A stretch of 63,051 bases of DNA, filler included, from Asterionella formosa (taxonomy: Eukaryota), in the NCBI GenBank assembly GCA_002256025.1. It is 12 parts of 12 records of this genome, joined end to end, with 100 filler letters (N's around TTAATTAATTAA, not from the genome) between each part and the next. Parts side by side here need not be neighbours in the genome. Positions count along the whole stretch, not along the records: positions 1 to 23,764 come from NKIB01002389.1; 11 more parts are not named here. One strand, 5' to 3'. Below are positions 930 to 58,526 of this stretch, in pieces; the stretch's first letter is position 1; the number at the start of each line of letters is the position of its first letter. Below the pieces are notes generated by a model. That model saw nothing but the letters and a program-made list of their open reading frames with translations. It did not search any database and was not told the origin of the DNA. The position numbers were made by a program, and so were the translations under genes.

Positions 930-3900
930 ATGGCCCCAGGGATGACAATACAAGCACTCCACAAAAGGAAAAGAAGGAATCAGTGGAGACCGGAAAAAAC
1001 AACACAAGTATGGGTACCACAAGCACATGATACCAAGACATCCCAAGTTCTTTGAGGGCAAGTGTGATGACCTAAAAGGCCAGCCACATCTATGACTGCT
1101 CTGATGTCAGACAGTCAGATATCTTCATGAAGACTACAAAGGAGATTGGATAATTAGTTGGAAGGACATACGAGTATGGTGGGCACATCCGGTTGGTTAT
1201 TGAGAATCTGGAGTTACCAGCCAGTTATGGCCAAACCAACAAGTGACCCACCTGAAAACGCGACCAGAACTCAAGAAAGGATCAGGGAAAAGCAAGTCGA
1301 TGAGTTTTTCAAGAGAAGCAGCTACCTTACTGAGAATTTCAAGACTCTATATTCATTGGTGTGGGGACAGTGTACCGACATCATGTGGCAGAAGATCAAG
1401 GCACTGGAGACATTCGATACTATGTCAAGTGCAGGTGATGGACTATCACTATTGAAGGCCATTAAGGACATGGCATACAATTTCCAGAGCCAAAAATATC
1501 TCCCCCACTCACTACATGAATCAAAGCGGCGATTCTACCTAAACAACACAAGCATACTTAGAACAGTTCCAAAACTTAGTCGACGTGATTGAACACAGTG
1601 GCGGGTATATTGGGCATGAACCAGGAATCGAAAAAGTCCTTACCACAGAGCAGGGAAAGAATCTGTCAACAATGACCTCATCTATGAGAGAGGAATTAAA
1701 AAGGAATGCTCAGGGGCAGTATCTTGACGTTGCTTTCCTACTCGGTGCTGACCGATCACGCTTTGGAAGGCTGATCGAGAACCTGGAGAACGACTTTTTG
1801 CAAGGTCAGAATAATTATCCTACTACAGTTACTGCTGCATATCTTCTTCTCACAAATTGGAAGCAGGAGTCACGGGATCTTGTGCGCCCAATCGGGCCTG
1901 CCAGTGATGGTGTATCATTCACAAATGTTGATGATAATACAACTGATCCTGAAGTCACTCTCGCAAACAACGGGCAAACAAAGAAAAACAATGGGCCACG
2001 TGACAGGGCCAGTGTGACATGTCACAATTGTGGCAAACAAGGGCATTATGCAAATGAGTGTACTGGGGAACGCCAGTTTGGAGCAACAATGCTCATCATG
2101 GATGGTATGGAGGGTGGAGAGTTTGATGGCAAACAACATTTCCAATTCCTTCAGCATCATCATACCGGAATTGCAATGAAAATTGACACAAATGGGTGTG
2201 TTCCCAACACATGGATACTGCTTCTTGATAACCAGTCAACTGTGGATGTGTTTCACAATGCTGGGTTGCTAAGGAACATACATGAGGGTGACACCCACAT
2301 GGACATACATTGCAATGCTGGAGTCACTAGTACCAACATGGTTGACAATTTGCCTGGATATGGTACAGTCTCTCCTTATCCCGAGTGAAGGAAAAGGGAT
2401 ACAGAGTTACATATGACAGCACAAACGGGAACGAGTTCATTGTTCACAAACCAGATGGGAGTTCAAGAATATTTAAGGAATCTGAGCAAGGGCTGTACTT
2501 CATGGACACCAGTGCCAGCGCACAAGCCATTGCTCTAATCAACACAGTAGCAGAGAATCAGTCTAGCTACACAAACCGTGAGTACTCCCGTGCTATGCTA
2601 GCTCATAAAATCCAAAGAATGATAGGACGACCAAGCACACGCACCTTAATGAAAATTGTTGACAACAACCTACAACCCAACTGTCCAATTAATCGAAGTG
2701 ACATTGCTGCGGCAGAAAACATTTTTGGGCCGGATGTGGGATCTCTTAAAGGCAAAACCGTCCACCGGGCGCAGCCACACGAGTAGAGGCCTACACTGTC
2801 AATATCCCAGCAGAAATAATGAGCCGATACCATAACATCATCCTTGCTGGAGACATCATGTTTGTCAACAAGATAGAGTTTTTTATGACAGTATCCCGAT
2901 ACATCAAATTTGGAACTGTCGAGATGATGAAAAATCAGCAAAATAAAGCAATCCATGCTGCAATAAAGCATGTAAAGAGGGCACTGCAATACCTAGCTAA
3001 TGTTCTTAAAACAGAAGCGTAATGGCACAATTAAGGGCAGAGGATGTGCAGATGGAAGAAAACAACGAGATTACATCTCCAAGGAAGAATCCAGCTCACC
3101 CACAGTGGCAATTGAATCAGTTATGTTGTCAACAAGATTACACCCCCAAGGAAGGCAGAATCCAGCTCACAACCCACAATGGCAATTGAATCAGTAATGT
3201 TGTCAAGCATCATAGATGCAAAGGAACGTCGAGACATTGCGACCGTTGACATCCCAGGTGCATTTTTGCAAGCCGACATGGAAGACAAAATCCACAAGAA
3301 ATTGGAGGGGGAAATGGCTGAACTCCTTGTCAGAATCGATCCAAAATTAAATAGGAAACATGTGCAGGTTGAACGTGGAAAACAGGTGCTTTATGTTGAG
3401 CTTTAAAAAGCGATCTATGGCACTCTTAAGGCTGCTTTCTTATTTTGGAGGCGGTTAACAAATGAACTTAAAAGTTGGGGATTCGTAGTGAACAACCCCT
3501 ATGACTGGTGCTTCATGAATAAGATAATTGATGATAAGCAATGCACAATTTTGTGGCTTGTGGACGATTTGAAGATATCGCGTGTCAACCCCACAGTGGT
3601 TACATATATGATCACACAATTGCAAGGAACATTCGGGAAAGAGGCACCACTAACCATTACATGCAGAAAGGTGCATGACTACCTGGACATTTTCCTTGAT
3701 TACTCAGCCCTCGGAAAAGTAAAGTTTTCTATGACCGATTATATTAAAAAAATGCTGGCCTACCTCCCAGATGCGATGAATGCTGGAGAGGCCGCCAATC
3801 CAGCTGCAGCACACCTTTTTGAAACTAATGGAACTGGTTCCACTCTGCTTGACGAGGAACAGGCTGACATTTTCCATCACAATGTTGCCAAGATTCTGTT

Positions 3901-16294: not shown

Positions 16295-16870
16295 TTTCGG
16301 CAGTCCATTTTCCTTAAGTAAACAGCAGTCCATAGGGGGCAATAGATGTCAGTGATGCATTTCCCTTAAATAAACGGCAGTCCATTTTGGTAGGCAAATC
16401 TAGGGGCCATTGATAAATATATTGAATTTTGTTTGGCAGTCCAAAAATGCAGCATATAAAATATACAAAATATGTTTTATATGAAGGCCAGTTGCAGGAT
16501 CGAGTACCAGTAATCCAAAAACAGAACATATGAAATATTCAACATACGTTTTATATGAAGGGCAATTGGCTGGCTAGTTCGCATCCAGCCAACATACAAA
16601 CTATGTAAAATTGCTTTTCAATGTTAACAGAAAGGGCAACGCAGTGGCGAAAAGTGCGCTGATAGCTAGGTTCTGAATTGCCTAGTTAAGACCCTACTCG
16701 GGAGTCTCCCATCTCGTAAGCTGGTGTACTCGACTTGGGAGGCCCTCGCAGGATGACCTTGCAGCGCCGGGGGCGCCACTCGTTCGGTCAACCTACTCGC
16801 GCCTACCAAGCCTCGAATGCTATAATACTCGCAGGCAGTCTCCACCCTTGGTCGTGTCTTACCTTCAGTA
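16295..16870 (+). repeat. Diverged member of the modular repeat family with GCAGTCCA repeats and a phased CTCG array
   Basis: GCAGTCCA x4; CATATRAAATAT..AA.ATA.GTTTTATATGAAGG x2; GC-rich core homologous to 48452-48667. Confidence 0.7.
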
Positions 16871-17301
16871 GGAGGACCACACGACGAACTGCGACAATCC
16901 AATGCAGCACGGACTCTCACAGTCTCTGTGCAGAGAGGAATCCGTCATCCCATTTTAGTCCGAACAAGCAAAACTTACCTTTCGAAACGAGCGAGTTGCT
17001 TGATGTCATTTTTTGCTGTCCCAACCTAAAATTCCACGAACTGGTGCAAAGAAGTTCACCTTTTGTTTGAAATATTGCTTTCACGTATTTCCATACTTTT
17101 CCATTGGATAAGAATAAATTCTCAATCATTTACCGGTACTGGAATTGAGGTTCCCCCCCCACCTTCTTACTCAAGAACTTGAAGGCAATCTGTTCTTGCT
17201 GCAATATTCGATGCGAACCCCTTTTTGATAAGATCACCTCAACAAGATCTTTACTGAATGCTGCAAATGTCGTTTACGAGAAAAGTCCTCATACATTCAT
17301 C

Positions 17302-18751
17302 ATGAAGGCAATTCAAATTCATTCTCTTTTCATGCTTGCTGCTGTTGTCGTCCACTGTTCATTCGTGGTCCCCGTGAAGGCGGGCCCGAATGGGACCCCA
17401 AAGGTAGGCGGTGTTGCTAGTGATATCGGTGCTAGTAATCTTCTGCCATTCTGTGCATTCGTGTTCATCTGCGTTGTTGGAGTACAAATTGTCTCACCTC
17501 CATTGCCATCCCATCTCCTCCAAACACGCCTTCCACGCCCGTAACTAAAGAAGGTATGTTGCAAATGAACACGGCATTTGCATGATCCTGCCGGCATCAC
17601 ACTCCTGTCCTGTTAGGTGGCTGCATTGTTGCGATCAATCATGTCAACTTACGCTTTGCCATCTTTCTCAAACCAGCCCAAGAAGTCCAAAAAGGTATCT
17701 ATCTCGTGCACAATGATCTGAACAAAGATTTGAATCAAAGTCTTGATTGTTTTGACAGAAATATCTTACAATTTCATTTAATTACTGCTTGTTCTTTTTC
17801 CAAATAGGGTGTAAGTTGCACCCCCCCCCATCATAATCATCGCTGCCAGTGAAGTTGTTTGGTTCTGAAGCTTGAAAATCCATCCAACTTCAACCAGGCA
17901 ATCTCTAACAATTTCTTGATTCTCCTTCAAAACAGACACCAGTTCCCATTGTACGTAGCCAACCTTTTTTGCTTTGTCATTATAGTATATTGAACATCTT
18001 CTTACATCTGCATTTCATTCTGGATCTTCCAATCAGCCTGTAAGTTTCAATCAAATTTTGATCATGCAATGATGTCGTGATAATTGTTTTGAAAGCAATA
18101 TCTTACAATTTCATTTCATTCTGCTTGTCCTTCCAAACAGACAGTAAGTTTCAATCAAAATTATTGATGCAATGATGATTGTTTTAACAGCAATATCTTA
18201 CATTTTCATTCCATTGTGGTTCCTCTTCCAAACAGTCTTCTGTAAGATAAATCAAACATCCATGCATTGATATAACGATGACTGTTTTAACAGGGATATC
18301 TTACAATTTCATTTCATAATGCTTGTCCTTCCAAACAGAAAGTAAGATTCAATCAAACTTGTTTGATGCATTGATGTACTTATGATTGTTTTGAAAGCGA
18401 TGCCTTACATTTTCATTCCATCGTGATTCCTCTTCCAAACAGTCTTCTGTAAGATAAATCAAACTTTTTGTAAGGATGATTGTTTTGACAGAAATATCTT
18501 ACAATTTCATTTAATTACTGCTTGTTCTTTTTCCAAATAGGGTGTAAGTTGCTACCAAATGTGTTCATGCAATGGTGTAATTATGATTGTTTCGGCAGCA
18601 ATATCTTACAATTTCATTTGATTCTGGTTCTCTCCAAATAGCTTGTAAGTACTATTGACCAACATTGTCCTTGCATTCTTGATTTAATGAAAGTTTGTCT
18701 TTGTCTGGTTTTTTGATATTGACGATTTCACTCCATCATGTAAAACAGTGA
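17302..18751 (+). CDS. Predicted micro-exon gene encoding a ~56-aa secreted K/S/P/T-rich peptide (13 exons)
   Basis: Exons: 17302-17403 (signal peptide), 17551-17553, 17677-17694, 17808-17810, 17936-17950, 18037-18039, 18141-18143, 18236-18241, 18339-18341, 18443-18448, 18541-18543, 18642-18644, then TGA at 18749-18751. Every intron is GT-AG and phase 0, mostly with a CT(T/A/C)AC branch-like motif and a pyrimidine tract. Confidence 0.75.
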
Positions 18752-19279
18752 GTTGTCATTAATATGGCATGGATTAAGTTCTCCGTTGGTTTTTTGCCTT
18801 GAAGCTGCATAATTGGGCGAGCATTATGTTTAAGGTTTTTTACACATGTGTTGTTGGTTTTCAAAGTTTAAATATATGTTTGGTTTATTGAATGATTCAA
18901 TTAGACACTATTCCTAGTAATGGTCATGCCAGCCCTTTATGCAAAATACTTCACCCCCATTAAATATATCTCCCAATACGTTTTTAGAAGAAGGGTGTCA
19001 ACTCTGATGCATCATGATGAAATTTTGTTCTACCATGTCTTCCTCAATTTCTATGTAATTCAATACATTCCGAGTAATAAATAAAATGACAATGACGACA
19101 AGGCGACACTTGGTTTACTGGTAAGGGATAACAATCAATGATTTATGAAAAAAATAATTTTCAGAATTTCACATTGACAATGCGCATCTCTTTCAGCTGA
19201 GCGCACCAATGGACATGATTGGTGTGTAAATGTTGGTGCATCAGGATTTCGAAATGTCCTTTCTTTGTATCTTTGTCAT

Positions 19280-19690
19280 TTACTGGGCGATTCATATTCC
19301 TTGGCATATGTTACACACGACAACAAGAGACATTTGGACCATGTTAGTTTATTGATGAGGGATCATGACAAATTAATGATGTATGCAAAAATAAATTTGT
19401 TTTAGGAGCTTTACATTGACAATGTGCAAATCTATAGGCCTGGCGGAAATGTAGGCAGCTGCATCGAAATGGTGAAATGTTTGTTTGTATCGTAATTTCT
19501 TGGGCGATTCATACACTCTTGGTATATGTTATATACATCGACAGGAGATATTTGCAACATGTTGGTCAATTGTTTTTTAATTTTTGCATCGACATAAACA
19601 TAAATTTCTTGGGCGATTCATACACTCTTTGCATTTGTTGTATACAACGACAGGAGACATTTGTAACATGTTGGTTGCTTGTGTTTTTAA
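19280..19690. repeat. Degenerate ~109-bp tandem repeat
   Basis: GGGCGATTCATA...CGACA..AGA.ATTTG at ~19285, 19502 and 19611. Confidence 0.6.
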
Positions 19691-19789
19691 TCTTGTGGTG
19701 ACATTGAACATTTTTAGTCACCACAAACAATATCGCACAATTTTTACAAAATTAATTTTGAAATGATAGCAAGATTGATCAATGGACAT

Positions 19790-21030
19790 CTAGGAAGACA
19801 AAGTGATCGTAACATTCCTAAGAAATCTTACAGGGCTGGACTTACAGCATTAAGAAAAATTTCCGGGCAGTAAATTCCAGGCTTATGTCTATTAACAATC
19901 TTCGCCATAAGGGGCATGATGGGTCCCAAATTTCAAAAAGTTGAGTCAGACTTTACAATAATATTATGGTTAAGTATTTCATTGAATGACAATCTGAATA
20001 TGGGACAATACACTGAAGAGTGTATAGAAATCCTAGACAAACGAATTAGATGATATCTTAGCTTATGTGACAAAAACAGTAACTGGAGAACAACGTGAAC
20101 TGGTTTCTTCTGTCGCATACTGTATACCCAAGTTCCATGGAATGATTCATTACTACCCTCATTTGATTAAAAAATTTGGAACACCTATCAACTTCTTCGG
20201 TGGTTTCCTAGAATCATTCTTGAAAGAAAAATTGAAACGTCCAAGTAAAGGAGTAAATGGTCATATACACCATCTACAACACGATATATTATTGAGGAGT
20301 TATGAAGGAAGACAATTTTTCACTTGCCAGGCAAGTTCTCTTTCCCAGTGATTACGTTATGTCCCTGTTGGTAAAGGAAGAAAATACTGATACATCAACA
20401 AATACTGATGCATCAAAATCTGATGAATCTGATCTTGATGGTATGGAATCAACCGACATACCCACTCATAAGACATCCATTCTTATGAAAACCCAAAAAA
20501 TTCAATTCTCGGCAGAAAAGGATGATTGTGGAATTTGGTACATTTCCGGAAGGAAAAAACAATCAAAGCCAGAACCAAAACGATCAGATGGGTCCGCCTC
20601 TTCCACCCAGACAACGACCACGGGAAAGCAGCGGTTAAGAACCTTGTAAACTCTGCCGTTCAGCGCTGTAATGACAAAAATTCTATTGGAACTATGTCTG
20701 TAGAGTTACTCAGGATCGATTTCTATTACCTTGTTACTATTGTTTTCAAAGATGACAGAGCAAAAACATTTTTAAGATGAAATCTAATTTGAAAAAAAGG
20801 ATAATAGTATTCATCAAGTAACGAATTCCTGGTTTGATTGGGTTGAGGTGAATTGGGAAAATCGGAATGGTAATTTTTACACTGTAACAGCAAAACTACT
20901 TTTATGGGGGAACGTCATTTACTCGGATGGAACCGAATCACTCTTAGCATCTGTTTGTTTGTTGAGAAGCACCAAGAACATGATAGCCCATGATCGCATG
21001 TTTTTTGCTGAGGAAGGAGATGCAAAGTAG
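19790..21030 (+). pseudogene. C-terminal remnant of a Plavaka/CACTA-related transposase
   Basis: RQSDRNIPKKSYRAGL, PKFHGMIHYYPHLIKKFGTPINFFGGFLESFLKEKLKRP and WFDWVEVNW match my recollection of the K.H...Hy...I..fG...n....E..k...K signature; stops and frameshifts present. Confidence 0.65.
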
Positions 21031-21215
21031 CGATATTTTCTTGCTTCACTTAAATTAGAAAATACTCCGCTCAATATGTGCATAATAGTTTGTTACGAAT
21101 GTATGACTTACGTATGTTCTCTTTTTTTCGAGGACCTGATGATGAATATGATCTGTCATCATCTGCTGATTCTTCCGAAGATTTCCATAATTTATTAAAA
21201 TCGTTGTAAATTCTA

Positions 21216-22073
21216 TCATGTTGCTTGAACGCTATCCAGAAGGACAGAATTACGGCTCACTCTCTGCATGGCCTCAGCAATAACCAAAGCACGTTTGAAT
21301 TCTTTGTCCAATTTCGTGGTTTCTTCTTTATCATGCCAATGGAATGATTTTACTGGATGTTTAATCATTTCACTAAGATATGTCAGTTCGGTATCACTTA
21401 ACGTTGGAGATAACTCAAAATTAGGATTGAACACCATCGCTGCAACTTTATCAACACACAAACCCACGATTTTTTTGAAATTATATTCCATAACCGCGTC
21501 TTCAATTCCGAAATCTGTGGTATTGCTAGGAAATGTTCATCCAATTCCATTATTTGCATTAAATTTCATTACCAAAAATGTATCACAACCATCAATCGTT
21601 AACCAAGCCTCACTTCGCTTCCCCATAAACACCATTTCTCTACGATGGTGTAACTGAAGTAATAATTCCATAAACGTCACAATCTTTAAGGGACCACATG
21701 ACCATTTAACATCCTAGGTTGGTTGGAAAATCATTGAATCAGTATCTTTGGCAATAAAACATTTCAGGGGCGCTTTACCTCGACATCCACCCCGCCAATC
21801 TTAAATTGAGGTTTGCCGTCAGTATAACCTCTGATCCTTGTTGGTTTTTCACCCAAGTTTTTCAAAAATCTTTCGCAACATAGTCATTAAGCCTTCTTCC
21901 TGCCTGATTTCCATTTGTCGAACTCTGTTTTCAGCTTGACCACATTTTTTGATGGAGTAATTTCTTTATCGATATCAAACCCTGGGCGAATTCGGTATTT
22001 TCGTGCAATCTCATGAATTCATTTAAAATGACTTTCCAAACACACTCCATGTTCAGGATCATGTACTTCAACT
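21216..22073 (-). pseudogene. Ulp1-like peptidase 3' half, copy C (close paralog of 40995-41830)
   Basis: Reverse complement aligns with 40995-41830; QPT*DVKWSCGPL keeps the catalytic Cys-Gly. Confidence 0.75.
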
Positions 22074-23764: not shown

Positions 23765-23864
23765 NNNNNNNNNNNNNNNNNNNNNNNNNNNNNNNNNNNN
23801 NNNNNNNNTTAATTAATTAANNNNNNNNNNNNNNNNNNNNNNNNNNNNNNNNNNNNNNNNNNNN
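23765..23864. other. Artificial contig linker N44-TTAATTAATTAA-N44 (also at 47609, 49155, 50701, 52247, 53792, 55337, 56882, 58427, 59971, 61508)
   Basis: Identical 100-bp spacer with stops in all six frames, 11 times. Confidence 0.99.
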
Positions 23865-28244: not shown

Positions 28245-29098
28245 CTGATAAATAATTTTATAAGTTGCCATGTGTTGCTCGGTATTTTGACACCCCTCTT
28301 GGAGGTGACAGATAGGGCAATCATGCATCATGCAATGCAGTTAATTAAATGCTATTGGAATGATGAATGAGAATGTCACTGTATTTATGGAGCATCTATG
28401 TATTATCCCCCATTCTAGTCAGTTCGTAAGGCCAATGGATAGGCCTATTGGTGGATTGTTGGATGTAAAATCAATGTTTGATCCCACAGAAGGTACTAAC
28501 AAAAAGAACTTTCTTCAGATGTAAACTAGCTACCCTCCAGCAGTACCTCCCAGATCTGGCCACCTGGAAATTGCCCAACTCATGCTGGTTTCTTGGTTTC
28601 GTTGATGCAATAAAGAAATGACTGTATCTAAGCAAATACAAAGTGGTGCTACTGGTGAAAGCTAATTTTACTTTTAACTATTTTTTTCATTTTGTTCTAC
28701 GTAATAAATGTGTGGATTGAGGTACTGTACATCATAAAATTATTTTGGGAAAATACAGACTTCGCAATTTACGAGCTCGAGCAGATCATCATGAATCATG
28801 ACTGCAAATGCGCACACACGACCACTGGGATCATGACTCACAGCAAGAATGGCTTGACCCGGAATGCCGTAACATGATTCGGCTGTCAAAATTCTTCGCA
28901 CTCATTACATGTATAGTATAAATGTATATTAAAATATTCAATTATTGTATATACTGTATATAGTATGACCCTGCGGTACCTTTATTATTTCCATCCCTTG
29001 TTCCATTCCCATAAAACTGAATCATCCATCTGTCATCCCTATTGTCAGTTCATCGACGCGCCCACGTTTCTGCAACGACAATAATAAAGAATAGTAAG

Positions 29099-30118
29099 AT
29101 GAATCCAAGAAGGTTCAAACGCTGGAAGCTGGTCCCTTTCTTGAAACGAGGGCAACGACGAGACAACAACGAAATCATTTGGCGCGATGATCTAGATCTC
29201 ATCGTTTCGGACGGCGGCGAACTACGACTGTTCAATGTCCCTATTGGCGACGAACGCCTAATCAAGATATCAAAGGCTCTATTACTGCGGGAAGAAAATA
29301 TCAATAGCAATAGCAACAGTAGCAGCAGAAGCAGAAGCAGGAGTAAACCACATCGAGCAATCCTAATCAAGTCACTTCAGATTAGCCAATGCGCTCTTGG
29401 CGATGAACAACAGCCCACCATCGCGACTCTTGCCGTGTCGCTCGCATCCACCACCACGTTGGAGAAACTAGTCTTGGCGGGAAACTACATGGGCGGCGCA
29501 GCTGGAATTAGATCCATTGCTCAATCCTTGTCTAGCAATACGTCCATTTTGCACTTTGCCATGCCCCAGTCAGAACTGGGCGACGTTGGCACAAAGTTTA
29601 TGGCGCAGGTCATTGATGTGAATGTCACATTAACTCATTTGTATTTGCACAATAACTTAATATCCGACGTGGGAGCAGCAGCCTTGGGAATGGCTCTGCG
29701 AGGGAATAATACTCTCCAGGCTCTGGATGTGTCGGACAATGTCATTGGCGATGCTGGAATCCTGGCGCTCAAAACGGGACTGCTGGAAAATACAACTTTG
29801 CGCCATTTGTTTGTAGGGGACAATCGATTTGGGTGCCATGGTTTGGAAGTATTGGTGGAATTGTTGAAGGATCACAATACTACAATACACATACTGGATG
29901 CGAATTCACACTCAACTCAACAGCAAGGACGACAATCGCAGCAGCAACTGTTGTTGCATCAAATTCGACACTATTTGGCTCTCAATCAAGCTGGACGACC
30001 ATTGGTTCGGAATGAACCCAACGAGGCATTGCTTCCAAGAGTTTTGGCCAAGGTCACTCATCAACCAGACTTGATGTATGGATTGATACGGGATTTACCC
30101 CATGTCTTTGTTTCCTGA
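29099..30118 (+). CDS. Ribonuclease-inhibitor-like (28-aa) LRR protein, NLRC3-like repeats
   Basis: Intact ORF with repeats such as NVTLTHLYLHNNLISDVGAAALGMALRG and a C-terminal LALNQAGR...LLPRVL...LMYGLIR motif. Confidence 0.9.
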   Translation: MNPRRFKRWKLVPFLKRGQRRDNNEIIWRDDLDLIVSDGGELRLFNVPIGDERLIKISKALLLREENINSNSNSSSRSRSRSKPHRAILIKSLQISQCALGDEQQPTIATLAVSLASTTTLEKLVLAGNYMGGAAGIRSIAQSLSSNTSILHFAMPQSELGDVGTKFMAQVIDVNVTLTHLYLHNNLISDVGAAALGMALRGNNTLQALDVSDNVIGDAGILALKTGLLENTTLRHLFVGDNRFGCHGLEVLVELLKDHNTTIHILDANSHSTQQQGRQSQQQLLLHQIRHYLALNQAGRPLVRNEPNEALLPRVLAKVTHQPDLMYGLIRDLPHVFVS

Positions 30119-33898: not shown

Positions 33899-35168
33899 TC
33901 ATTCTAATATAATATGAAAGAAGTGGTGATAAATAATCATGAATGAATATTTCTTTGAATCACAAACATATCTATTAGCATTCCTATGCAAATAGGGCAT
34001 ATACACTGAAGCAATTTGGTTCTGACCAACTTTGCTAGCACGAAAGTTGTAGAGCAATACAATCATTTGGAGAATTAATTTTCTCTCACCTTTTTCTTCA
34101 TAACGAAATTTGTCTTTGATTCTCGGATATGATCCCTGAAGGCATCGCATTCCCCATTCCGACAGCTGTTGGATTGAGGTGGCTTGGCGATTCATACCAA
34201 ATCTTTATCGAGGATTGCCATTTGCATCAACATTATTTTGATGCGATTTCAACATTGCATTTGATTTCTTAGATGCAAATGCTGAATCCACAACTACTTT
34301 TTTACCTGTTTCCCTGTAAACTGTTTCAATCTGATCATAGATTGATGACCAAATTGCCATGGTGGAGTCATGTAGAACACCAGGTGCATTGAAAAATGAG
34401 CAGCGAATTTTGCCATCAGGCGAAAAAAGAAACAAGTTTGTCACATAGTGTTCATGAGTCCATTCATTGTAGAAGCTGTTTTGCTGTGTTTCATTTCCAG
34501 CCCATTGCAGGGTCAGTTTCAGACCATCCATTGCTCCCCAACAATTTGTTATTAGTGGGTATTTCTGATTGATCATGGTTGCAAACAAGGTGGCTTCGTC
34601 TGCAGTAGGCAGTCTCACAACGGCATCTTCATGTGTCAGCAGTACTTTTACAATCATTCGCCTTGAAAACCTCAACCAAACACTCAAAGAACCATGAGTT
34701 AATCTGAAAATAATCTGAAGAATCATATAGGAACCACGAGTCCTGGTCTTTGCTAACCCAAGCGCTAGACAACTGATGGAACAGAGGTATCTTTGCCGAC
34801 CTTTCTTGGTTGTTGAATTTCTAACAATGAAATCCGTATTTTTCCTACAGGGAGTAAATGAATAAAAACAAGGTTTGAACAGCTGGTGTAGGAGCTCGAA
34901 AGAAGCATGGTCAAACCCACACAAGGTAATCAGAGCATCATCATGCTTGCTGTTGAACAAAGTCCAGAATGGACTTGATAATGGATGCTGTAGTGTGTGG
35001 CGATGGATTTTGCCACTTCTTCTTCTGGCTGACCTCATCAACAGTCAAACTTTCCCTGAACGATGGCGTCTTATTTACTGGTGGATAGCACATTGCTAAC
35101 AGTTGCAATGTGATCATAATGTCATCATCATCATCATCATCATCAGGAGATGAGATGAAAGTCGACAT
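33899..35168 (-). pseudogene. DDE_Tnp_4-type transposase pseudogene
   Basis: CWGAMDGL, HDS, VVDSAF, RQATSIQQLSEWGMRCLQGSYPR; in-frame TAA at 34205-34207 and a frameshift near 35045. Confidence 0.9.
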
Positions 35169-47608: not shown

Positions 47609-47708
47609 NNNNNNNNNNNNNNNNNNNNNNNNNNNNNNNNNNNNNNNNNNNNTTAATTAATTAANNNNNNNNNNNNNNNNNNNNNNNNNNNNNNNNNNNN
47701 NNNNNNNN

Positions 47709-48667
47709 GATATAATTCAACATTTCAGGTCTCGTAAAAATAATACCGAGTCTACAGAGATAATATTATAACGTGTTCAAAGTAAGCGTTAAACCATGCA
47801 TGGTTGTTTTTAGTACCACGTACGTATGTAGACTACTAGATGACTGCCGGTACCGGTAGAATATCCGTTAAGCATCATTGCATACATGACCGGAGCAAAA
47901 ACTTGCCACCAACATCAGATGTATCGATATCATCGTGCGTCCGACGAAATATGGACGATGCGACTACATGAATACCTCGAGAAGACAAGCAATCCAACAA
48001 TCAACCGCATCCGTTAGGCAAAGAATCGCTACTGGCGTCATCGCGGAACTGATTTCGCTTCAAACCGGTCATGATGGACGACGATTGGCATGGTGAAAGG
48101 TGAATTGCCGGAGTCCACTTTTCAGGAGACGAACAAAAACGAGGTGAATTCTAGATATAAATCATTAAAATCTGTATAGTATATAAAATAGTTTCCTTAA
48201 GTAGACCCGTTGCCGATTTCGGCAATCCCAGGGCTGGAAAACCGAGGGGCAATTGGTGTCTGTTGTCTTGCCAAAATGCGAACATATGAAATTTATAAAA
48301 TATATTTTAATGATGGGCAATATCGGACCTTTGGCAATTTTCGAGGTGAAGATAGGAAATATACAAAATATATTTTATATGATGGGCAATAGTAGGCTAA
48401 AATTGACATTTATGCTAAATTTGTAGGCAGTAGGTAAGCGAATGACGCGACGATAGCTAGAGCGGGAATTGCCTCAAAAATACCCTTCTCGGCGGCTACT
48501 TGCCTTCTCGTATACATGTGTACTCGACAGGGATGGCACTCGTAGGGTGACCTTCTCGCAGCGCCGGGGGCGCCACTCGTACGGTCAACCTACTCGCGCC
48601 ACCCAGCCTCGAACACATGTATACTCGCAGGCAAGAGACCACCTCGGGCGTGTATTGCCTTCAGCAG
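47709..48667 (+). repeat. Dispersed modular repeat, copy 3, with the fullest CTCG array
   Basis: Homologous to 5188-5930 and 14406-15268. Confidence 0.85.
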
Positions 48668-49254
48668 AATTTCAAGCTTTTCAAGAAATGCGGATGGTTC
48701 AAAACATTTTCAAGGTGGACCGGGGCTTCGAAATGCTCTGGGGCATCCATGACCATGTGTGTGATTTCTAGCCATGGTTGGTTAATCACCCCAAGATTTT
48801 CCCACAAAAAGTGTCTCTCGGTAAGATCAAGGAGAAGCATGTTGTGGCCTGGTGTAAAATGTTCGGTTCTTTTCATAACAGTGCCTTTTTCTATCAAATA
48901 TGAGGGGATCCTGTGTAGCTGATGATACGATGACATAAGACCAACAGTGTTATTTTCATTATCATAGGAAACTTAAGTTTTGTCATTACCATCTTTCCCT
49001 TGTTCAAATACCCAGTAGGAACATGACGTGTCTATTGTGAAACTTTACCTACTATGTACTATGTTGGTACTTTGAAACTATTGCTTGGCGCTACCAATCT
49101 CATGTCTATTAGCTACTGAGTATGTTGGTATGACATCGCTGTCTAACCATAAAGNNNNNNNNNNNNNNNNNNNNNNNNNNNNNNNNNNNNNNNNNNNNTT
49201 AATTAATTAANNNNNNNNNNNNNNNNNNNNNNNNNNNNNNNNNNNNNNNNNNNN

Positions 49255-49690
49255 AGAAACCACTCAACTCATTGGAAGATAGTACCGAATAAGATGGTAT
49301 TCCGTTGATTCACAATGGATCAATGCTACTCATCATTTACATGTCACAGCCCGGATTTTTTCACCTACACCCTACATGGTGGTGATTGTTACCACTACTG
49401 ACTTGTCAATAACTTCATCAATATTGGAGCAATCCATACCTAAGAACCACTCAACTCATTGGAAGATAGTACCGAATAAGATGGTATTCCGTTGATTCAC
49501 AATTGATCAATGCTACTCATCATTTACATGTCACAGCCCGGATTTTTTCACATACACCCTACACGGTGGTGATTCTTAGTACTACTGATTTGTCAATATC
49601 TTCATCAATATTGGAGCAATCCATACCTATGAACCACTCAACTCATTGGAAGATAGTACCGAATAAGATGGTATTCCGTTGATTCACAAT
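49255..49690. repeat. 187-bp tandem repeat, about 2.3 units
   Basis: ACCACTCAACTC at 49259, 49446 and 49633. Confidence 0.9.
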
Positions 49691-49895
49691 AAAATAACCC
49701 TAATCCTAACCATAAGGAGCACTTACAAAGATTAGTCATAGATTCAGAGATGGGTGGTAGCTGCGCAATTATATTAGATGAGCAATTGAAGTAAAAAAAA
49801 GGTTTGCAATTGAAGTACTCTATAGAAATAGCCATAAAAAAAGGTTTTGGTTTAGAAAAATCTTCAAAACTGTTTTCCGATATCCTTGTCACTCA

Positions 49896-50700
49896 CCTAG
49901 ATTTGAAAGCTTATTGAAGCTTGAAGGTAGTTCCAAAATCGTATTGTTGCTCAAATCTATGTACCCTAATCAACGAAATAACAGGCAAAAGTGGTTGTTA
50001 GATTGCAAAATTCAGCGAAACCATGTTTTCTCTCAAATCTTTGCTTGCTTACTCAATTTTTGATCAAGAGCCGCAATCTCTGGAGGAATAGATCCAACAA
50101 GACCCTCACCATTCAGTTGCAATAATGTAATGTTTGTTCCAATGCAACCAATCCCTCTCCATTAGAGCAAGACAACCAGCCAAAGGTTACAATCAAAGAT
50201 ACAGGCAACAACAAGAAATCCAGACATAGAGTCTCAAATCACATGGGGAGCAAAACCCATAGCAATAGAGGACAGAACCCTGTGACTCTAGTTCCAAAAC
50301 ATCAAGGGGCTACATCTCCAAAGGAAAAAAGTATTGTTCAACAAATATACCGGTAGATCAGTAAAAATTATCAAGAGTCCAATCTTGCCTACATATTTTA
50401 TCTAACCCTAGCAGCATTCTGTGCATAACACATATGGACCACTATTATGTCATCAGTAATTAGAAATCTTGAGGGACTGATCCATTGAATGCATCTAGAA
50501 TATTGAAACTTGTCAAGAGTCCAATCTCTGTGGGAAGTGTGCCAGTGAAAATATTGCTGGACAAATCTTGATAATTGAGACTTGTCAAGAAACCAATTTC
50601 TGTGGGAAGTGTGCCAGTGAAAGTATTGTCAGACAAAACTAGATCAGTGAGACTTGTCAAGAGTCCAATCTCTGTGGGAAGTGTGCCAGTGAAAGTATTG
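49896..50700 (-). pseudogene. Plant-type (24-aa) LRR protein gene fragment(s), probably degenerate
   Basis: 72-bp repeats LSDNTFTGTLPTEIGFLTSL; LRR N-cap WRGIGCIGTNITLLQLNGEGLVGSIPPEI before a GTAAGC donor; a single-LRR exon YIDLSNNTILELPSSFNKLSNL before GTGAGT. Confidence 0.7.
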
Positions 50701-50800
50701 NNNNNNNNNNNNNNNNNNNNNNNNNNNNNNNNNNNNNNNNNNNNTTAATTAATTAANNNNNNNNNNNNNNNNNNNNNNNNNNNNNNNNNNNNNNNNNNNN

Positions 50801-52246
50801 TCCGGACCTCATTGTCCCTGCCTGTTGTCAACAACAATGCGTGAGCTGACAAGCCATACTAGCATTTAGGTACACAACAAGAACACACTCACCATTCAAC
50901 TGTATTGCAGAGTTCTTTCATTTGAGTCGAGGATTCAATTGACATTGCAGCAACCTATGCAGTTACAGAAACAATGAGAAGGAATGATTTGTTAGCTAGT
51001 AGTCATGTTACATTGAAACAACGACACGCAATTCCATCGTATCCTCTTGCTTCACTTACCACAAATCAATGCAACTGATGCATAAGTCTGTAATAGTAAC
51101 TTGTCAGTAAGCCAAATTCTTGAATAAGTAAGTTTCGGGTATCCAATGTTGTCGAATAAACTTACCGGTACATTTTTGTCATCTTAACTTTGAGAGAAGG
51201 TAAACGTTTTGTCGGCTTTGTTCCAACAGAAGTGAATAGGTCCAACAAGCGACAAGAGCACTTACGCAATTTGGTTTGGTTTTACATTGGTGCGCTCCCC
51301 AACAAGCGAAACGAGCTGTTTAATCAACTGAGAAAAAAGGAAATGTGGCTGCGTTTAGTTAACAATTTGTTGTTGTCCTGCCTCCCAACGATTGTCATCC
51401 AAGTAGTTACCACATTGATGGCTTCATTACCTTAAACATTCTCCATCCTTCGAAGGCGCAATGTGTCATAGTCACAATGTTTTTCGTTATGTATTGCGAA
51501 AATTTTCTTTTCTTTTACTGTGCTTTACTACGACGTATCTTTTCATGAAGCAGCAGGCATTGTTTGTTAACATGACAGAACGATTTCAAAAATATATATG
51601 CCATGAATATAGTAATAAAATTTGTAAATATATATATATATTAAGTGTTATATATTTATTATATTCAAAGGCGCTCTCGATATGGAACATCTGATATTAT
51701 GGTTGAGATGATCATACTCGCATATACATAATTCGAAAATACTCAATGCACTATATGTCCATTGTTTTCCACGACTACGTGTACCGGAATTGTTTCTGAA
51801 ATTTGTTTGCATCGATATTTTTTATGTCCGTTGAAACTAATTATTTAGACCGTTAAATAGCCGCCAGGGTTATGATAGCAAATTGATTAAGCCCCTTTTT
51901 TGGTCGGGAGCTCTTTATGTGTACTGGTACATCATATGACAATAACAATATATCATATATATATACAGAGTACCAGTAGCAGGTGGTAATTGATATACTG
52001 GGGGTAGTCGGAGTAGTAAACTAGCAACAGAACACCATATGTTCAGGACTGTTGCTACTGCAGTGGGACAGTAAATCATCATAGTTTTAGGATTGTATGA
52101 TCATAAAACTAAAAACCAAAAGAACACCACATGTTCATGACTGCTGCAATTATAGTGGGACAGTAAATCATCATAGTTTTAGGATCGTTTGATCATAAAA
52201 TTAAATTTCAAAAGAACACCATATGTTCATGACTGTTGCAATTACA
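50801..52246 (+). repeat. Multi-copy interspersed repeat (also 55437-56520 inverted and 61608-62730)
   Basis: Three contigs align over ~1 kb with few differences; distantly similar to 8270-8710. Confidence 0.9.
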
Positions 52247-52348
52247 NNNNNNNNNNNNNNNNNNNNNNNNNNNNNNNNNNNNNNNNNNNNTTAATTAATT
52301 AANNNNNNNNNNNNNNNNNNNNNNNNNNNNNNNNNNNNNNNNNNNNTA

Positions 52349-53791
52349 CAACCCACGAGCAACCCTACCACCCAACCAACTAGATTTCCCACCACCCAGC
52401 CTACGAGCATCCCTACCACCCAACCAACTAGATTTCCTACCACCCAACCAACTAGATTTCCTACCACTCAACCTACAAGCAATCCTACCACTGAGCCTAT
52501 CACCCAGCCAACTCGATTTCCCACATCCCAGCCTACGAGCAACCCTACTACTGAGCCAATCCGTTCACCAACCACTACACCTACCCGTTCACCAACCACT
52601 ACACCTACCCGTTCACCAACCACTACACCTACTCGTGCACCAACTAATCTCCTTAGTGTAAATCCGACTCCTGTACCGACTGCTGATATCACCACACCTC
52701 CATCACCCCCACCAACAAGCACTTTAACTGCGGTACCTACCCTACCGAATGTTCCAACCACATCTCCTCCTACTACTCAGCCTACCGCAGTAGTGGCTCC
52801 TTCGTGTTGCTCCTATAACTTGAAAGATTGTGCCTATTCCTCTAATGTCGCTGATTGGTGTGCCATGAGTTCGCAGAACTGTCGGCAGTGTACAGGATCG
52901 TGGATAGTTCCAACAAATCGCAATACGTGCATAAATCTTTGGGGCCAGTGTAACATTGTTCCTGACGGTTCAGAAGGGACTGTCAATGACACTTGCTGTG
53001 GCCAATCTGTATGCACGCGTATTGACCAATGGAATAAGCAGTGCAAAGTTCCCCAGTTCTGTTGTTCTTGGGATTTGGCTACTTGTGGGGACGACAAATG
53101 GTGCAACCAAAATGCCCAGAATTGTGGTTCCTGCAGCGGATTTTTCATAGACCCAAGCACTCGTCGATCATGTACTGCTCGCTGGAGTGGATGTACTTCA
53201 TCCAGCGAATGCTGCGCTGGAGGCGTTTGTCTTGCAGATGCAAGTGGTCAACAGGTTTGCGATGTTCTCCCTGTAAATACGCAACCTACTCTCTCTCCAA
53301 CCAATCTCCCAACTGTTGTTCCTACGCCTTTACTATCGCTGTCGCCAACTACACCACGGCCATCGCCTCCACCTACAACTACTCCAACCAGGATTCCTAG
53401 TCTTCCGACCACAGAGTCTCCAACTGCTCAACCGACAACTTCACCTACCCTTCTTCCCACCCCGTCACGTCCATCTCCCCTGCCAACGTTTCTTCCAACC
53501 GGGATTCCCACAGTTCCGACTCCTCCAACCACATCTCGTCCAACCGGAATCCCTTCCGGTTCTCCTACGTTTTTACCCACAGATTTGGGTCCCTTTCCGT
53601 CAGGACCCTACATTACTGTTTCTTCAACAAGAATTATCATCCCCGATCCACCAAGTCCTGTTACCTCGGCTCGAACAAAATGTCCTCATTTCGACACTGA
53701 TATTCTTGACTGGCATGCCGGGTCTACCTGGGGAAGTAGTGGTGTTCCAGTGCCAACCAACTTCGCTGACATACAGCTTCCGCCCAACATG
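52349..53791 (+). CDS. Internal fragment of an extracellular PT-rich protein with two Cys-rich modules and a probable G8-domain start
   Basis: Open frame across the contig: PTxxPT repeats, CCSYN...WC and CCSWD...WC modules, then RTKCPHFDTDILDWHAGSTW...IQLPPN. Confidence 0.8.
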
Positions 53792-53902
53792 NNNNNNNNN
53801 NNNNNNNNNNNNNNNNNNNNNNNNNNNNNNNNNNNTTAATTAATTAANNNNNNNNNNNNNNNNNNNNNNNNNNNNNNNNNNNNNNNNNNNNCAGTACTAC
53901 AA

Positions 53903-55336
53903 TTAGCACTGAGCCGCCTGCTCCATGTCTGCCGCCATCCTAGTGGCCATGCGCCTCGCTTCATCTATATTGGCTGGCAACACTTTACGGCAAGGAGTGC
54001 CTTCTGGGAGGCAAAACGTAAAGTAAAAATGATTGGATATCTTTGCATACGCTTTTTCGGGTTCTGTTACCCAGGCTTCCACTTCAACAGTAATCAATGG
54101 ACAATTGACATGATCTTCGACATAATCACCCAAGAACCCACCATTTGGCATGGTGTACAGTACTCTTGAATTGAAGACAAGCAAATCGCCAACATCAACA
54201 GGAGATTCAAAACTAATGTCGTCGACCTCAAGAAATTTAGGCTTGGCCCCACCAAAGACATAGGCAGTTGCAAAGGCCAGCTCAAAGGCTCGGCGCATCA
54301 AAAATCCTCCAAAAATACGATTGTGTAAATTAAGAGCTTGGGGCTGGGCAATCATGGCATTTTGCATGTGAGTACTACTCATCAAGATTGAATTTGGATC
54401 GGCCAGTGATGGCATGCGCAACAAAGGCCCCGCTTCGACCAATAAGGCCCCCGCTTGTCTGTCAACTTGGAGACTTGCTTCTGTGAGCTGTTCGCCAACA
54501 GTAAGCTTGTTTCTACGGCGAGCCTTTTTCGCGTGGGATTTCAACGCTCCTAATTCAAAGTGAGCTCGTTCTTCTTGTGTCTGGGGAAGAAGGGCCGGCA
54601 TGGCAACAGGCTTCTTTGTATCCGGGTCTAGTGTCACAAAGGTAAAGTATGCTTCCAGCCACTCCTCATCGGAGCCTTCCTCAACACATTGCATTCTAAT
54701 TTCCATGGACGAATTGCCCACCCATGTGACCTTTCCTGAAAGACACTGGTCCGTTTCAATGAGAGGGCGACGACGAAGGCGGATCCGATCTACCCCAGCT
54801 GTGACAATTAGGGGTGTACCATAAACGTGATGAAAGGCAATGTTGCCTGCCATGGCGTCAAGATCTTCCAGCACCTGTATTTTGATATTGCAGTGATTTT
54901 TGTCAGCTTGTGCTCCGTGGGCACTTTCAGTCGAAGTATTTCTTCCAGAGTAAGCGTACCTTTCCAAATCTCATCTGTCCCCATGGATTCCTGTACGTCT
55001 CTTGCAAAAATTCATCTGAGCTAAATGGATAAGAAATGGCCTGTGCACTCTCCTCTGGCGATTTGCCACTAGGAACAATGTCACCCTCGTTGTCCTTTCC
55101 TTCCCGTAGCTCTGCCGCCGCCGCCTTGCTGACATCTGTGACATGGCTACTAGAGGCCGTCAATCCCATAATGGCCTTTGCCTCTTGACGCGCCGTCCAT
55201 AGTTTCGCAACAATCGGATTTTTAAACTTGCCCTGCATAGGAATGGACAATTCTTTTGGTGGCATGGGAGCGTTGGGATCGCCTGCTTCATCGGGATTGT
55301 TGGACGACGATGAAGTTCGGCATGAGAAGGGTACAA
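53903..55336 (-). CDS. ACOT9: Acyl-CoA thioesterase 9-like (double hotdog fold), 5'-truncated, one intron at 54875-54959
   Basis: YRNPWGQMRFGK|VLEDLDAMAG, IVTAGVDRI, WVGNSSME, NLHNRIFGGFLMRRAFELA; GTACGC...CAG intron with GCTGAC branch site. Confidence 0.9.
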
Positions 55337-58300
55337 NNNNNNNNNNNNNNNNNNNNNNNNNNNNNNNNNNNNNNNNNNNNTTAATTAATTAANNNNNNNN
55401 NNNNNNNNNNNNNNNNNNNNNNNNNNNNNNNNNNNNAATTTGCTACCAAAACCCTTGCGGCATTTGAACGGTCTAAATAATTAGTTTCAACGGACGTAGA
55501 AAATATCGATGCAAACAAATTTCAGAGATAATACCGGTACACGTAGTCGTGGAAAACAATGGACATATAGTGCATTGAGTATTTTCGAATTATGTATATG
55601 CGAGTATGGCCATCTCAACCATATCAGATGTTCCATATCGAGAGCGCCTTTGAATTTTATAAAATGTATAACGCTATATATATATATATATATTTACAAA
55701 TTTTATTACTATATTCATGGCCAATATATTTTTCAAATCGTTCTGTCATGTTAACAAACAATGCCTGCTGCTTCATGAAAAGATACGTCGTAGTAAAGCA
55801 CATGACAAGAAAAGAAATTTTTTGCAATACATAACGAAAAACATTGTGACTTCGACACATTGCGCCTTCGAAGGATGGAGAATGTTTAAGGTAATGAAGC
55901 CATCAATGTGGTAGCTACTTGGATGACAATCGTTGGGAGGCAGGACAACAACAAATTGTTAACTAAATGCAGCCACATTTCCTTTTTTCTCAGTTGATTC
56001 AACAGCTCGTTTCGCTTGTTGGGGAGCACCAATGTAAAACAAAACCAAATTGCGTAAGTGCTCTTGTCACTCGTTGGACCTATTCACTTCTGTTGGAATA
56101 AAGCTGACAAAACGTTTACCTTCTCTCAAAGTTAAGATGACAAAAATGTACCGGTAAGTTTTATTCAACAACATTGGATACCCGAAACTTACTTATTCAA
56201 GAATTTGGCTTACTGACAAGTTACTATTACAGACTTATGCATCAGTTGCATTGATTTGTGGTAAGTGAAGCAAGAGGATACGATGGAATTGCGTGTCGTT
56301 GTTTCAATGTAACATGACTACTTGCTAACAAATCATTCCTTCTCATTGTTTCTGTAACTGCATAGGTTGCTGCAATGTCAATTGAATCCTCGACTCAAAT
56401 GAAAGAACTCTGCAATACAGTTGAATGGTGAGTGTGTTCTTGTTGTGTACCTAAATGCTAGTATGGCTTGTCAGCTCACGCATTGTTGTTGACAACAGGC
56501 AGGGACAATGAGGTCCGGAATGAACTGTGTGTTGCTTTCTGCTGTTGCTAGTTCTATCATATACATTACTGACACACTGTTGTTATGAAAATCTCTGCAG
56601 GTCAATGAAGAAGTCATTTCAAGTACAAGAAGGAAATCAGTGTGTGAGGATGCATTCATGTTGCAACTTCGTAGAATGATGCCTGTTCAAGAGTGAATAA
56701 TTTCCCCCTTCTGAATGAATGGCTTCTCCTTGTCTTGCAATGTCCTTACAGATGTCTCATAATGCCTGCCTTCTCAAGACTGAAGATGCCATTCTGAAAG
56801 AACTGCTTCGTTTGATTGCATATCGAGATTTGTTTCCCATGTAATGTGAAATACCGGTTGTTGAATTAGTAATCAACATTANNNNNNNNNNNNNNNNNNN
56901 NNNNNNNNNNNNNNNNNNNNNNNNNTTAATTAATTAANNNNNNNNNNNNNNNNNNNNNNNNNNNNNNNNNNNNNNNNNNNNGAAGCACCGTGTTACAACA
57001 GTATTTGCCAGTAGAAAAATTAAACCCGGTTTAACTGGGGGTTTAATTTTTTGGTTTAATTAAACCATAACTGTACGCACGATCATCGTAGGAATATACA
57101 CTGTACGAAAACATAAAATTAGCTATTACACTGTAGTACCTGGTACCTGGTACCGGTCGTATACACAAATTAAACCCCATCCTCATTCATGTACCGGTAC
57201 CTGGTACCTGGTATCAGGTACTCGGTACTTCGGTATGCAGCAGCAGTAAGGAGAGGAAGGTGTGACTGATGGGACACCAACAGCAGGTGAAGGAGGGAAG
57301 TCTGAGCTGCCAGTTTGCTTTTGGAACTATATACTTGGGTTGCACTGCCTCCCAGCAGATCGAGATGCAATGTCACCTAGTTTTGATACCAATGTGGATG
57401 ACAGCAGCCAGTCGACTCTCGTCTTGAAGGAGTGTTGACTCCTGACTACTAGTTATTGGTGGTAGCAGGAGTGACAAGTATGCAGAATGATGATTGAGAG
57501 TCCAGAAATGCCTCAAATGTGGTGTTTGAAGAAGTTTTCAACAATTAACAAGTTGATGAACCAACAGAAATGATGCAGGATGTGTGTCAAAGAGGTACTA
57601 GGAGGGAGGAAGCAATTCTGTCAGTATTGTAGTCTTTCTGTTACACCAAAAACTATTTGTTCTGTGGTAGGAATGCAAAAATTTGGAATTAGGTTTGTAA
57701 GGTTGCTGAAAATTTTACAAGGGTTGAGCAGGATATAGTAAGAAAGGTGGAGTATTGTTGCTTGGCAAAGCGTTGTGTGGGATATGATGACACCCCCTAC
57801 TTTGAGCTGCGTTTTTTTCACTGCCACATTGCAAATTGACAAAATGTATGAGGTATATATTCCAGATAGAACAGTGCCACAGATTAGATTGCCAATCAAT
57901 TGAGGATATCTGCTGATCATCACACTGGTGGTCATACACAGCTAGTATGTGTTTAGGTTATTATTACACAGATGCATGATTTCATACAACTGTAGCTACA
58001 TTATTTTTTCACTATTTTTCATTAGCTATATAATGATTGTTTTCACTTCATTTCGGGTATATGTATATTAGACATATACACACACCCCTACAATAAAAGA
58101 CTTGGTCCTCTATTTACTGTAATATAGTGCTATAGTATATGTACTCGTGGTGACTCCATATTAAGTACTAGGTACTCTAAATACATAAAATGGTCTATTC
58201 CCGCATACACCTACCCTGGTACGGTACCTGGTACCGGTACCCTGGTAACCAGTCGATACGAGCAAATGGGCGCCGGTACCAGTACTAGGTACTGGTACCT

Positions 58301-58526
58301 GGTACCACAACCGGTATTGTCGCAAAGAATAGCTTTGTGCACTGTCCTGGAGTAGTAGTAAACTACTAGTCCTAGCTTCCACTACGGGTTTAACTGGGAG
58401 TTTAATTTTTTACGACTACGTTCCCGNNNNNNNNNNNNNNNNNNNNNNNNNNNNNNNNNNNNNNNNNNNNTTAATTAATTAANNNNNNNNNNNNNNNNNN
58501 NNNNNNNNNNNNNNNNNNNNNNNNNN

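Follow-up and report, generated by a model that had tools for sequence, protein, structure and literature searches.

In the diatom Asterionella formosa (assembly GCA_002256025.1), we identified an expressed nuclear gene whose short reading frame is divided among exons of as little as one codon and whose main RNA form carries all eleven of its internal micro-exons. The gene lies in a stretch of 63,051 nucleotides (nt), filler included and joined from parts of 12 records, which we analysed as a whole and refer to as the window. Its reading frame of 171 nt runs from an ATG at 17302 to a TGA at 18749 and is spread over 13 exons, separated by 12 GT-AG introns of 86-147 nt. In order, the internal exons measure 3, 18, 3, 15, 3, 3, 6, 3, 6, 3 and 3 nt; seven of the 11 are single codons, all 11 lengths are divisible by three and in phase 0, and every internal exon is flanked by AG on its 5' side and GT on its 3' side. 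The stop codon is formed by the first three bases of exon 13. Introns interrupt the frame on average once per 13 coding bases, and the micro-exons supply 39% of it, including 66 of the 87 nt that encode a putative mature peptide. We explain the locus as a spliced diatom gene for a secreted peptide that originated by duplication, and give this explanation as a whole a probability of about 0.7. The splicing we regard as nearly certain, and the coding of a secreted peptide as probable.

Micro-exons in spliced RNA

Public sequencing runs were compared over positions 17000-19250 of the window: RNA runs X8 and X9 (study P5), RNA run X20 (study P2) and DNA run X5, which derives from the same sample as X20. 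The RNA libraries with the spliced form were poly(A)-selected and come from two studies. Across runs, DNA data contained 88-98% of the sampled words and five RNA runs 11-37% (lake-water metatranscriptomes and one algal sample); in runs X6, X7 and X12-X19, 13-62% of the sampled words were present. The leader exon, micro-exons, introns and final acceptor with its TGA that the first-pass annotation had proposed were all found in place, as listed here (family denotes the set of similar introns described in the next section):

17302-17403 (+): exon 1, coding part; 34 codons, from the ATG to just before GT; hydrophobic signal-like segment and first 7 residues of the putative mature peptide
17404-17550 (+): intron 1; 147 nt, GT..AG; outside the repeated intron family
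17551-17553 (+): exon 2; 3 nt, one lysine (Lys) codon; RNA runs X8, X9 and X20
17554-17676 (+): intron 2; 123 nt, GT..AG; CTTAC 25 nt from the 3' end
17677-17694 (+): exon 3; 18 nt, six codons including four for Lys
17695-17807 (+): intron 3; 113 nt; 3' half in the repeated intron family
17808-17810 (+): exon 4; 3 nt; first of exons 4-8, which a loose end in X9 reads in the predicted order
17811-17935 (+): intron 4; 125 nt; poly-C tract; CTAAC 27 nt from the 3' end
17936-17950 (+): exon 5; 15 nt
17951-18036 (+): intron 5; 86 nt; family member
18037-18039 (+): exon 6; 3 nt
18040-18140 (+): intron 6; 101 nt; family member
18141-18143 (+): exon 7; 3 nt
18144-18235 (+): intron 7; 92 nt; family member
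18236-18241 (+): exon 8; 6 nt
18242-18338 (+): intron 8; 97 nt; family member
18339-18341 (+): exon 9; 3 nt; 3' junction shown by a joint in X9 record 17
18342-18442 (+): intron 9; 101 nt; family member
18443-18448 (+): exon 10; 6 nt; same sequence as exon 8
18449-18540 (+): intron 10; 92 nt; family member
18541-18543 (+): exon 11; 3 nt; same sequence as exon 4; inclusion from the 45-letter total (X8, X20)
18544-18641 (+): intron 11; 98 nt; family member
18642-18644 (+): exon 12; 3 nt, last sense codon; inclusion from the 45-letter total only
18645-18748 (+): intron 12; 104 nt; at most weak family kinship; TTGAC 26 nt from the 3' end
18749-18892 (+): exon 13; stop codon at 18749-18751, then 3' untranslated region

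Joints linking exon 1, exon 2 and exon 3 were present in contigs of all three RNA runs. Two contigs, X20 record 1 (345 nt) and X8 record 10 (603 nt), span all the micro-exons into the 3' exon and align to the window in three pieces with zero differences: one ending at 17403, one at 17675-17695, which is exon 3 as a piece of its own, and one starting at 18749. Between the first two pieces lies a single letter, and between the second and third lie 44. Corrected for the bases that the aligner absorbed (two at the intron 2 acceptor and one at the intron 3 donor), these become 3 letters from exon 1 to exon 3 and 45 letters from exon 3 to exon 13. The latter figure is the exact sum of the predicted exons 4-12. 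The three extra letters must derive from exon 2 (17551-17553), because the sole AG-AAG-GT site between 17404 and 17676 is the one at 17549-17555. Exon 2 had been the least trusted element of the first-pass annotation, and its letters are present in X8, X9 and X20. The main contig of X9, in which the joint across exon 3 was counted, stops within the micro-exon string. A loose end behind 17695 nevertheless reads 30 of the 45 letters in agreement with the predicted spliced frame, and this string and two further loose ends are exact substrings of the frame spliced in silico.

The removal of introns 1-2 is thus seen in contigs of three runs, that of introns 3-7 in the displayed letters, and that of intron 9 in a joint from 18341 to 18443 with GT..AG ends that skips 101 nt (X9 record 17). 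For introns 8 and 10-12 we infer removal from the exact 45-letter total in two runs. The transcript starts upstream of the exon 1 ATG, and contigs match the window without differences over 17000-17403 (X8, X9) and 17269-17403 (X20). At the other end, the piece for exon 13 begins exactly at 18749 and reaches 18892 in X20 and 18862 in X8; the end given for exon 13 is the furthest base of an RNA contig rather than a mapped poly(A) site. The RNA contigs of three runs and two studies therefore agree to the base with the splicing model, in which exons of one to six codons follow a leader exon and a stop codon stands directly behind the last acceptor. Transcripts that stay unspliced, or that jump from exon 1 or 3 to the last exon, had been named as evidence to the contrary; in the full-length contigs the 45 intervening letters are included.

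None of the splice joints occurs in any of the 125 aligned contigs of DNA run X5. All three RNA runs have a depth of 0 over 17456-17607, and RNA depth is likewise 0 over 18596-18747, although uncovered stretches alone prove little. The locus could also be read as a plain minisatellite in a long intron or other non-coding DNA, with splice motifs arising by chance, or as an assembly artefact, and Tandem Repeats Finder does call the stretch a repeat of ~95 nt and ~200 nt. Against this, strings that run over up to five micro-exons recur in the RNA of both studies, and the DNA run of the same sample lacks them; such strings cannot be read from the DNA and are not artefacts of repeat collapse. Barring misassembly of the contigs, the RNA refutes this reading, to which we leave a negligible probability.

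Contigs of low depth capture partly spliced forms (roughly 3-33, against 66-185 for the spliced contigs). Introns 5-7 have been removed and intron 4 retained in X8 record 11, and intron 4 is also retained, at low depth, in X9 record 14. The contig X9 record 15 keeps intron 5 and the start of intron 8 and has lost introns 6-7, and X9 record 17 keeps introns 8 and 10 and has lost introns 5-7 and 9. In two contigs, several units are still unspliced. Since an intron may already have left when its neighbours are retained, the introns are removed one by one and in an order that is not fixed.

Symmetric micro-exons could instead serve exon skipping and yield a combinatorial set of peptides, a possibility raised in the first-pass annotation. 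All internal exons are in phase 0 and multiples of three, hence any skip would stay in frame; the micro-exon genes (MEGs) of schistosomes work in this manner (PMC4350168); and the break of the X9 contig inside the micro-exon string may mark a branch in the assembly graph. Yet the variants that we observed are intron-retaining intermediates, and exon-skipped forms were absent among the joints of the three RNA runs, a count in which contigs may hide rare variants. Both full-length contigs hold all 45 letters and hence every micro-exon, with the same proviso that contigs drop rare forms. Because no skipped forms were found among the contigs, combinatorial variation is left without support, and we consider it quite improbable as the purpose of the layout.

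Among known gene layouts, that of schistosome MEGs comes closest. These genes open with a signal-peptide exon, continue with numerous very small symmetric exons and encode a secreted product (PMC10526429, PMC4350168). The diatom gene likewise has a first exon with a putative signal segment, would draw its mature product mostly from tiny symmetric exons, yields a small and probably secreted product and is hard for automatic annotation. It differs in scale: for MEG exons, the main text of one report gives 6-81 nt, with 15 nt the prevailing size (3-81 nt in its abstract), and for MEG introns 100 to almost 5000 nt (PMC10526429), whereas seven of the 11 diatom micro-exons are 3 nt long and the introns, of 86-147 nt, are mostly copies of one another. 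The product has 56 amino acids, compared with up to 189 reported for MEGs, and alternative inclusion was not seen in the diatom RNA contigs. Since MEGs are apparently restricted to platyhelminths (PMC4350168) and the host here is a diatom, an independent origin is likely. As far as can be judged, the diatom gene is not a MEG by descent and the likeness is one of layout. It represents a novel, more extreme form of micro-exon architecture, and we found no published report of one for diatoms: a full-text literature search for micro-exon or microexon together with diatom, whose coverage leaves out most subscription journals, returned no relevant paper.

An array of related introns

All 12 introns have GT..AG ends and eight of them begin with GTAAG. 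Introns 2-11 each have a CTTAC or CTAAC motif at a distance of 25-39 nt from the 3' end, and intron 1 has no branch-like motif in its last 50 nt. The pyrimidine fraction upstream of the acceptors is 0.56-0.74; the branch sites are predicted motifs. Matches to YAG-NNN-GTAAG number 11 in the window, compared with an expectation of 2.03, and 0 of 100 shuffles reached 11; six of the 11 matches fall within the 850-nt micro-exon stretch and the remaining five are isolated. The micro-exon introns are ordinary short spliceosomal introns of the diatom type, because two unrelated introns of the window are of similar size: one of 76 nt with RNA support at 19119-19196, and one of ~80-85 nt in a thioesterase gene, placed by protein alignment. 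Both carry YTGAC-type motifs upstream of the acceptor. The first of them, a GT..AG intron, has been removed in an X9 contig of depth 2, which suggests a further transcript immediately downstream of the micro-exon gene. Within intron 4, the poly-C tract at 17820 varies in length between samples and is four C longer in the X9 RNA than in the window.

We propose that each intron of ~100 nt would be recognised as a unit (intron definition) and that neighbouring introns would be removed successively. The signals of such a unit would be a strong donor (GTAAG), a branch site of the CTTAC type some 25-39 nt ahead of the acceptor, a run rich in pyrimidines and an acceptor that reads CAG or TAG. Recognition as an exon is impossible for an acceptor and a donor with 3 nt between them, which implies intron definition, and the two sites cannot be occupied together, which implies successive removal. 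For plant micro-exons, one report likewise describes two flanking introns that leave in turn and not together (PMC8831610); stepwise removal agrees both with that report and with the partly spliced contigs found here.

On this model, seven constitutively included 3-nt exons would show how far the reach of the spliceosome extends under intron definition. Stepwise removal is also a feature of recursive splice sites, the zero-length exons of long animal introns, in which an acceptor stands directly against a strong GTAAGT donor. Unlike these, the diatom gene retains 3 or 6 coding nt between the sites, has short introns and shows no fixed 5'-to-3' order. Isolated exons as small as 3 nt or even 1 nt have been described from plants, animals and a dinoflagellate (PMC8831610, PMC12584245), and two adjacent micro-exons have been shown in rice (PMC8831610). 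Such ultra-short micro-exons (1-15 nt) resemble those of the diatom in being genuinely spliced and usually missed in annotation. They are single or paired and sit in conserved multi-domain genes, whereas the diatom gene has eleven in succession with homologous introns between them. We know of no denser run of tiny exons.

The introns themselves are repeats. Tandem Repeats Finder reports a period of 95 at 69% matches and one of 198-207 at 82-86%; a module of ~95-104 nt is repeated, as is its double form of ~200 nt. Pairwise similarity is 71-89% among introns 5-11 and 62-85% between these and intron 3; introns 4 and 12 show weak kinship to the family at most, and introns 1 and 2 are unrelated to it. 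The last 64 nt of intron 3 are identical to the last 64 nt of intron 10, and a 76-nt block around exon 4 (17744-17819) is 100% identical to that around exon 11 (18477-18552). A single ~100-nt unit recurs in copies as introns 3 and 5-11, and the gene therefore appears to have grown by tandem duplication. When the six units with 3-nt exons were aligned on their splice sites, mean pairwise identity was 0.27 in the exon and 0.55 in the intron, and 0 of 61 three-column intron windows had an identity as low as that of the exon columns. The repeat unit thus keeps the intron and leaves the codon free to vary. In our model, the gene would have expanded by serial tandem duplication of ~100-nt intron-plus-codon modules, each running from the 3' part of one intron across one or two codons into the 5' part of its successor; after duplication the splice signals would have stayed conserved and the codons diverged. 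Tandem duplication of a segment with splice signals is known to create a working intron (PMC3265369, PMC4974935). The published cases are single events among ordinary exons, unlike the diatom gene, in which serial duplication would have built most of the coding region. The locus may thus have caught a coding sequence in the act of growing by one or two codons with each duplication of an intron module, its introns being kept.

Introns better conserved than exons could also mean that the introns are the product and that the locus is a host gene for small RNAs such as small nucleolar RNAs. An ATGATG-like stretch in several introns bears a loose resemblance to a C box. Rfam gave 0 matches over 16500-19500 at expectation values (E) up to 1, however, and RNAalifold found 0 conserved pairs in eight aligned introns; with both empty, the reading is unsupported. 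A conserved D-box-like element is not visible either. Recent tandem duplication is the simpler cause of the similarity between introns, and small RNAs would leave both the frame-keeping exon lengths and the signal-like leader unexplained. We rate a host gene of this type as very improbable.

The search for paralogues covered the window of 63 kilobases (kb), in which the intron motifs were found nowhere else except for one ATCTTACA at 19825. The region 19200-21300 was considered as a second gene of the micro-exon kind and rejected; it includes a 109-nt tandem repeat (19494-19697, 1.9 copies, 86% matches), which is unrelated to the intron family. A metagenome scan with a 15-letter intron motif returned at least 119 loci with one match each and was set aside, the motif being too short for specificity. 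BLAST of the locus and the window against these loci, at least 119 in number, gave a single chance match of 27 nt.

A putative cationic peptide

The spliced frame has 56 codons and specifies a product of 56 amino acids. All windows of 11 residues that start at residues 6-15 have a Kyte-Doolittle mean above 2, and the hydrophobic core is followed by a small-residue site resembling those for cleavage, Val-Lys-Ala / Gly, and then by a strongly hydrophilic remainder. The Gly behind the putative cut is unlike the aromatic residue or Leu that is usual there in the plastid-targeting signals of diatoms. The hydrophobic N-terminus would direct the product into the endoplasmic reticulum, and cleavage after about residue 27 would release a disordered peptide of 29 residues, rich in Lys, Pro and Ser and with a charge of about +7, to be secreted or sent to the cell wall or a silica-forming compartment. 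The hydrophobic N-terminus is the whole basis on which we infer secretion. As predicted, the mature peptide contains 7 Lys, 6 Pro, 5 Ser, 4 Gly and 3 Thr and neither acidic residues nor Arg, with a calculated isoelectric point of 10.8 and a charge of about +6.8. Six of the lysines fall within eight residues, where they form four overlapping K-x-x-K motifs.

Lysine clusters of this type recall the proteins of the diatom silica. The motif definitions of the pentalysine clusters of silaffins and of the lysine-rich units of cingulins (5 Lys within 12-14 residues; K-x-x-K), apply to the putative peptide (PMC9650480, PMC4557024). In common with these proteins, it has a putative N-terminal signal sequence, clustered Lys and a Ser-Lys-Ser-Ser-Gly tail that recalls cingulin units. 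In contrast to them, it has 29 mature residues and is far shorter, contains no peptide repeats and carries Pro rather than Ser or Gly between its lysines. We advance a role in the cell wall or in silica formation only tentatively, and consider it doubtful.

Several observations weigh against our explanation. At the level of the RNA, the spliced context of exons 10-12 is deduced from the total length and one joint, as the last 14 of the 45 letters are not displayed, and the contigs yield neither strand nor isoform ratios, the strand being taken from the GT..AG orientation. The stretch is a tandem repeat and its 11 exon lengths are for this reason not 11 independent draws; the multiples of three are partly inherited through duplication and were not all independently selected. 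The peptide is a prediction drawn solely from the RNA frame, and its signal peptide is a putative one, recognised in a hydropathy profile. A query of exon 1 plus the read-through into intron 1 (80 amino acids) found no homologue at E up to 10 among the proteins of 44-140 amino acids in a collection of 5.8 billion; one candidate shared a word with the query and none scored. The product contains no arginine and, accordingly, no RXL processing motif in any of its 56 residues, and the resemblance to silaffins and cingulins is one of composition, not membership. Finally, the X8 and X9 contigs extend more than 300 nt upstream of the start codon and include five upstream ATGs. One upstream frame of 15 codons (17258-17305, with in-frame ATGs at 17258 and 17267) ends in a TGA that overlaps the main start (ATGA); the X20 contig begins at 17269 and this frame may lie in the 5' leader. 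Upstream ATGs could lower translation or reflect the overlapping transcript of a neighbour.

Some of these observations would suit a locus at which the spliced RNA is real and the short frame has no functional product, that is, a young, neutral or non-coding transcript in which an intron module has spread and the frame was kept only since the duplicated unit chanced to carry 3 nt. The empty homologue search and the upstream ATGs in RNA-covered sequence, with a 15-codon frame overlapping the start, fit such a locus, as does a window with few recognisable genes and transposon-like frames. The exon letters are near chance identity between units, as expected without constraint, and several exon lengths are copies of each other. 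But four different exon lengths (3, 6, 15 and 18 nt) all keep the frame, a textbook hydrophobic leader stands at the start, and the stop at the first codon of the last exon avoids a premature one. Moreover, poly(A)-selected libraries from two studies yield the spliced form as their main contig, and the intron signals are well kept. We therefore judge a non-functional frame unlikely and favour a gene for a small, probably secreted peptide.

Similar genes would escape every diatom annotation. Should the lysine-rich peptide function in the cell wall or in the formation of silica, a class of biomineralisation peptides may have gone unnoticed on this account. By extension, micro-exon genes invisible to gene finders may form a class of their own in diatoms, which would encode short cationic peptides of the wall or the silica-forming compartment at one codon per exon, would grow and change by module duplication and would have originated independently of the flatworm MEGs. 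This is a speculative idea, and we would not expect it to hold; if true, it would provide a natural system for studying constitutive single-codon exons that are spliced through intron definition alone.

Surroundings of the gene

The window looks repeat-rich and gene-poor. A Pfam search of 50 open frames left 45 without a match and gave one only a PT repeat below the cutoff; the families matched were zinc knuckle, leucine-rich repeat (LRR), DDE_Tnp_4 and 4HBT. The corresponding frames are a gag-type zinc knuckle at 1543-2385 (+), leucine-rich repeats at 29021-30115 (+), a Harbinger-type transposase (DDE_Tnp_4) at 34208-35044 (-) and an acyl-CoA thioesterase (4HBT) gene on the minus strand at 53906-55334, which has two exons and an intron of about 80-85 nt. 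For the thioesterase frame at 53906-54970, the best named relatives are all diatoms, with 66-71% identity (Conticribra weissflogii, 71%; Skeletonema potamos, 69%; Thalassiosira, 68-69%; Fragilaria crotonensis, 69%; Cyclotella cryptica, 66%), and unnamed environmental proteins reach 79-99%. The named relatives bear out the assumption that the host is a diatom.

There are 11 pairs of runs of 44 N with 12 bases between the members of a pair, at 23765-23864 and over 47609-61607. Ten of the 11 are regularly spaced, about 1,537-1,546 bases apart from 47609 onward. The pairs look like imposed masking or scaffolding rather than biology. One pair (55337-55436) lies just upstream of the end of the thioesterase alignment, in which the 20 N-terminal residues of the relative are unaligned. 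A motif scan also recovered short sequences shared in both orientations by 51055-51161, 56188-56261 and 61623-61726, about 5.1-5.4 kb apart, and their recurrence suggests a dispersed or inverted repeat element.

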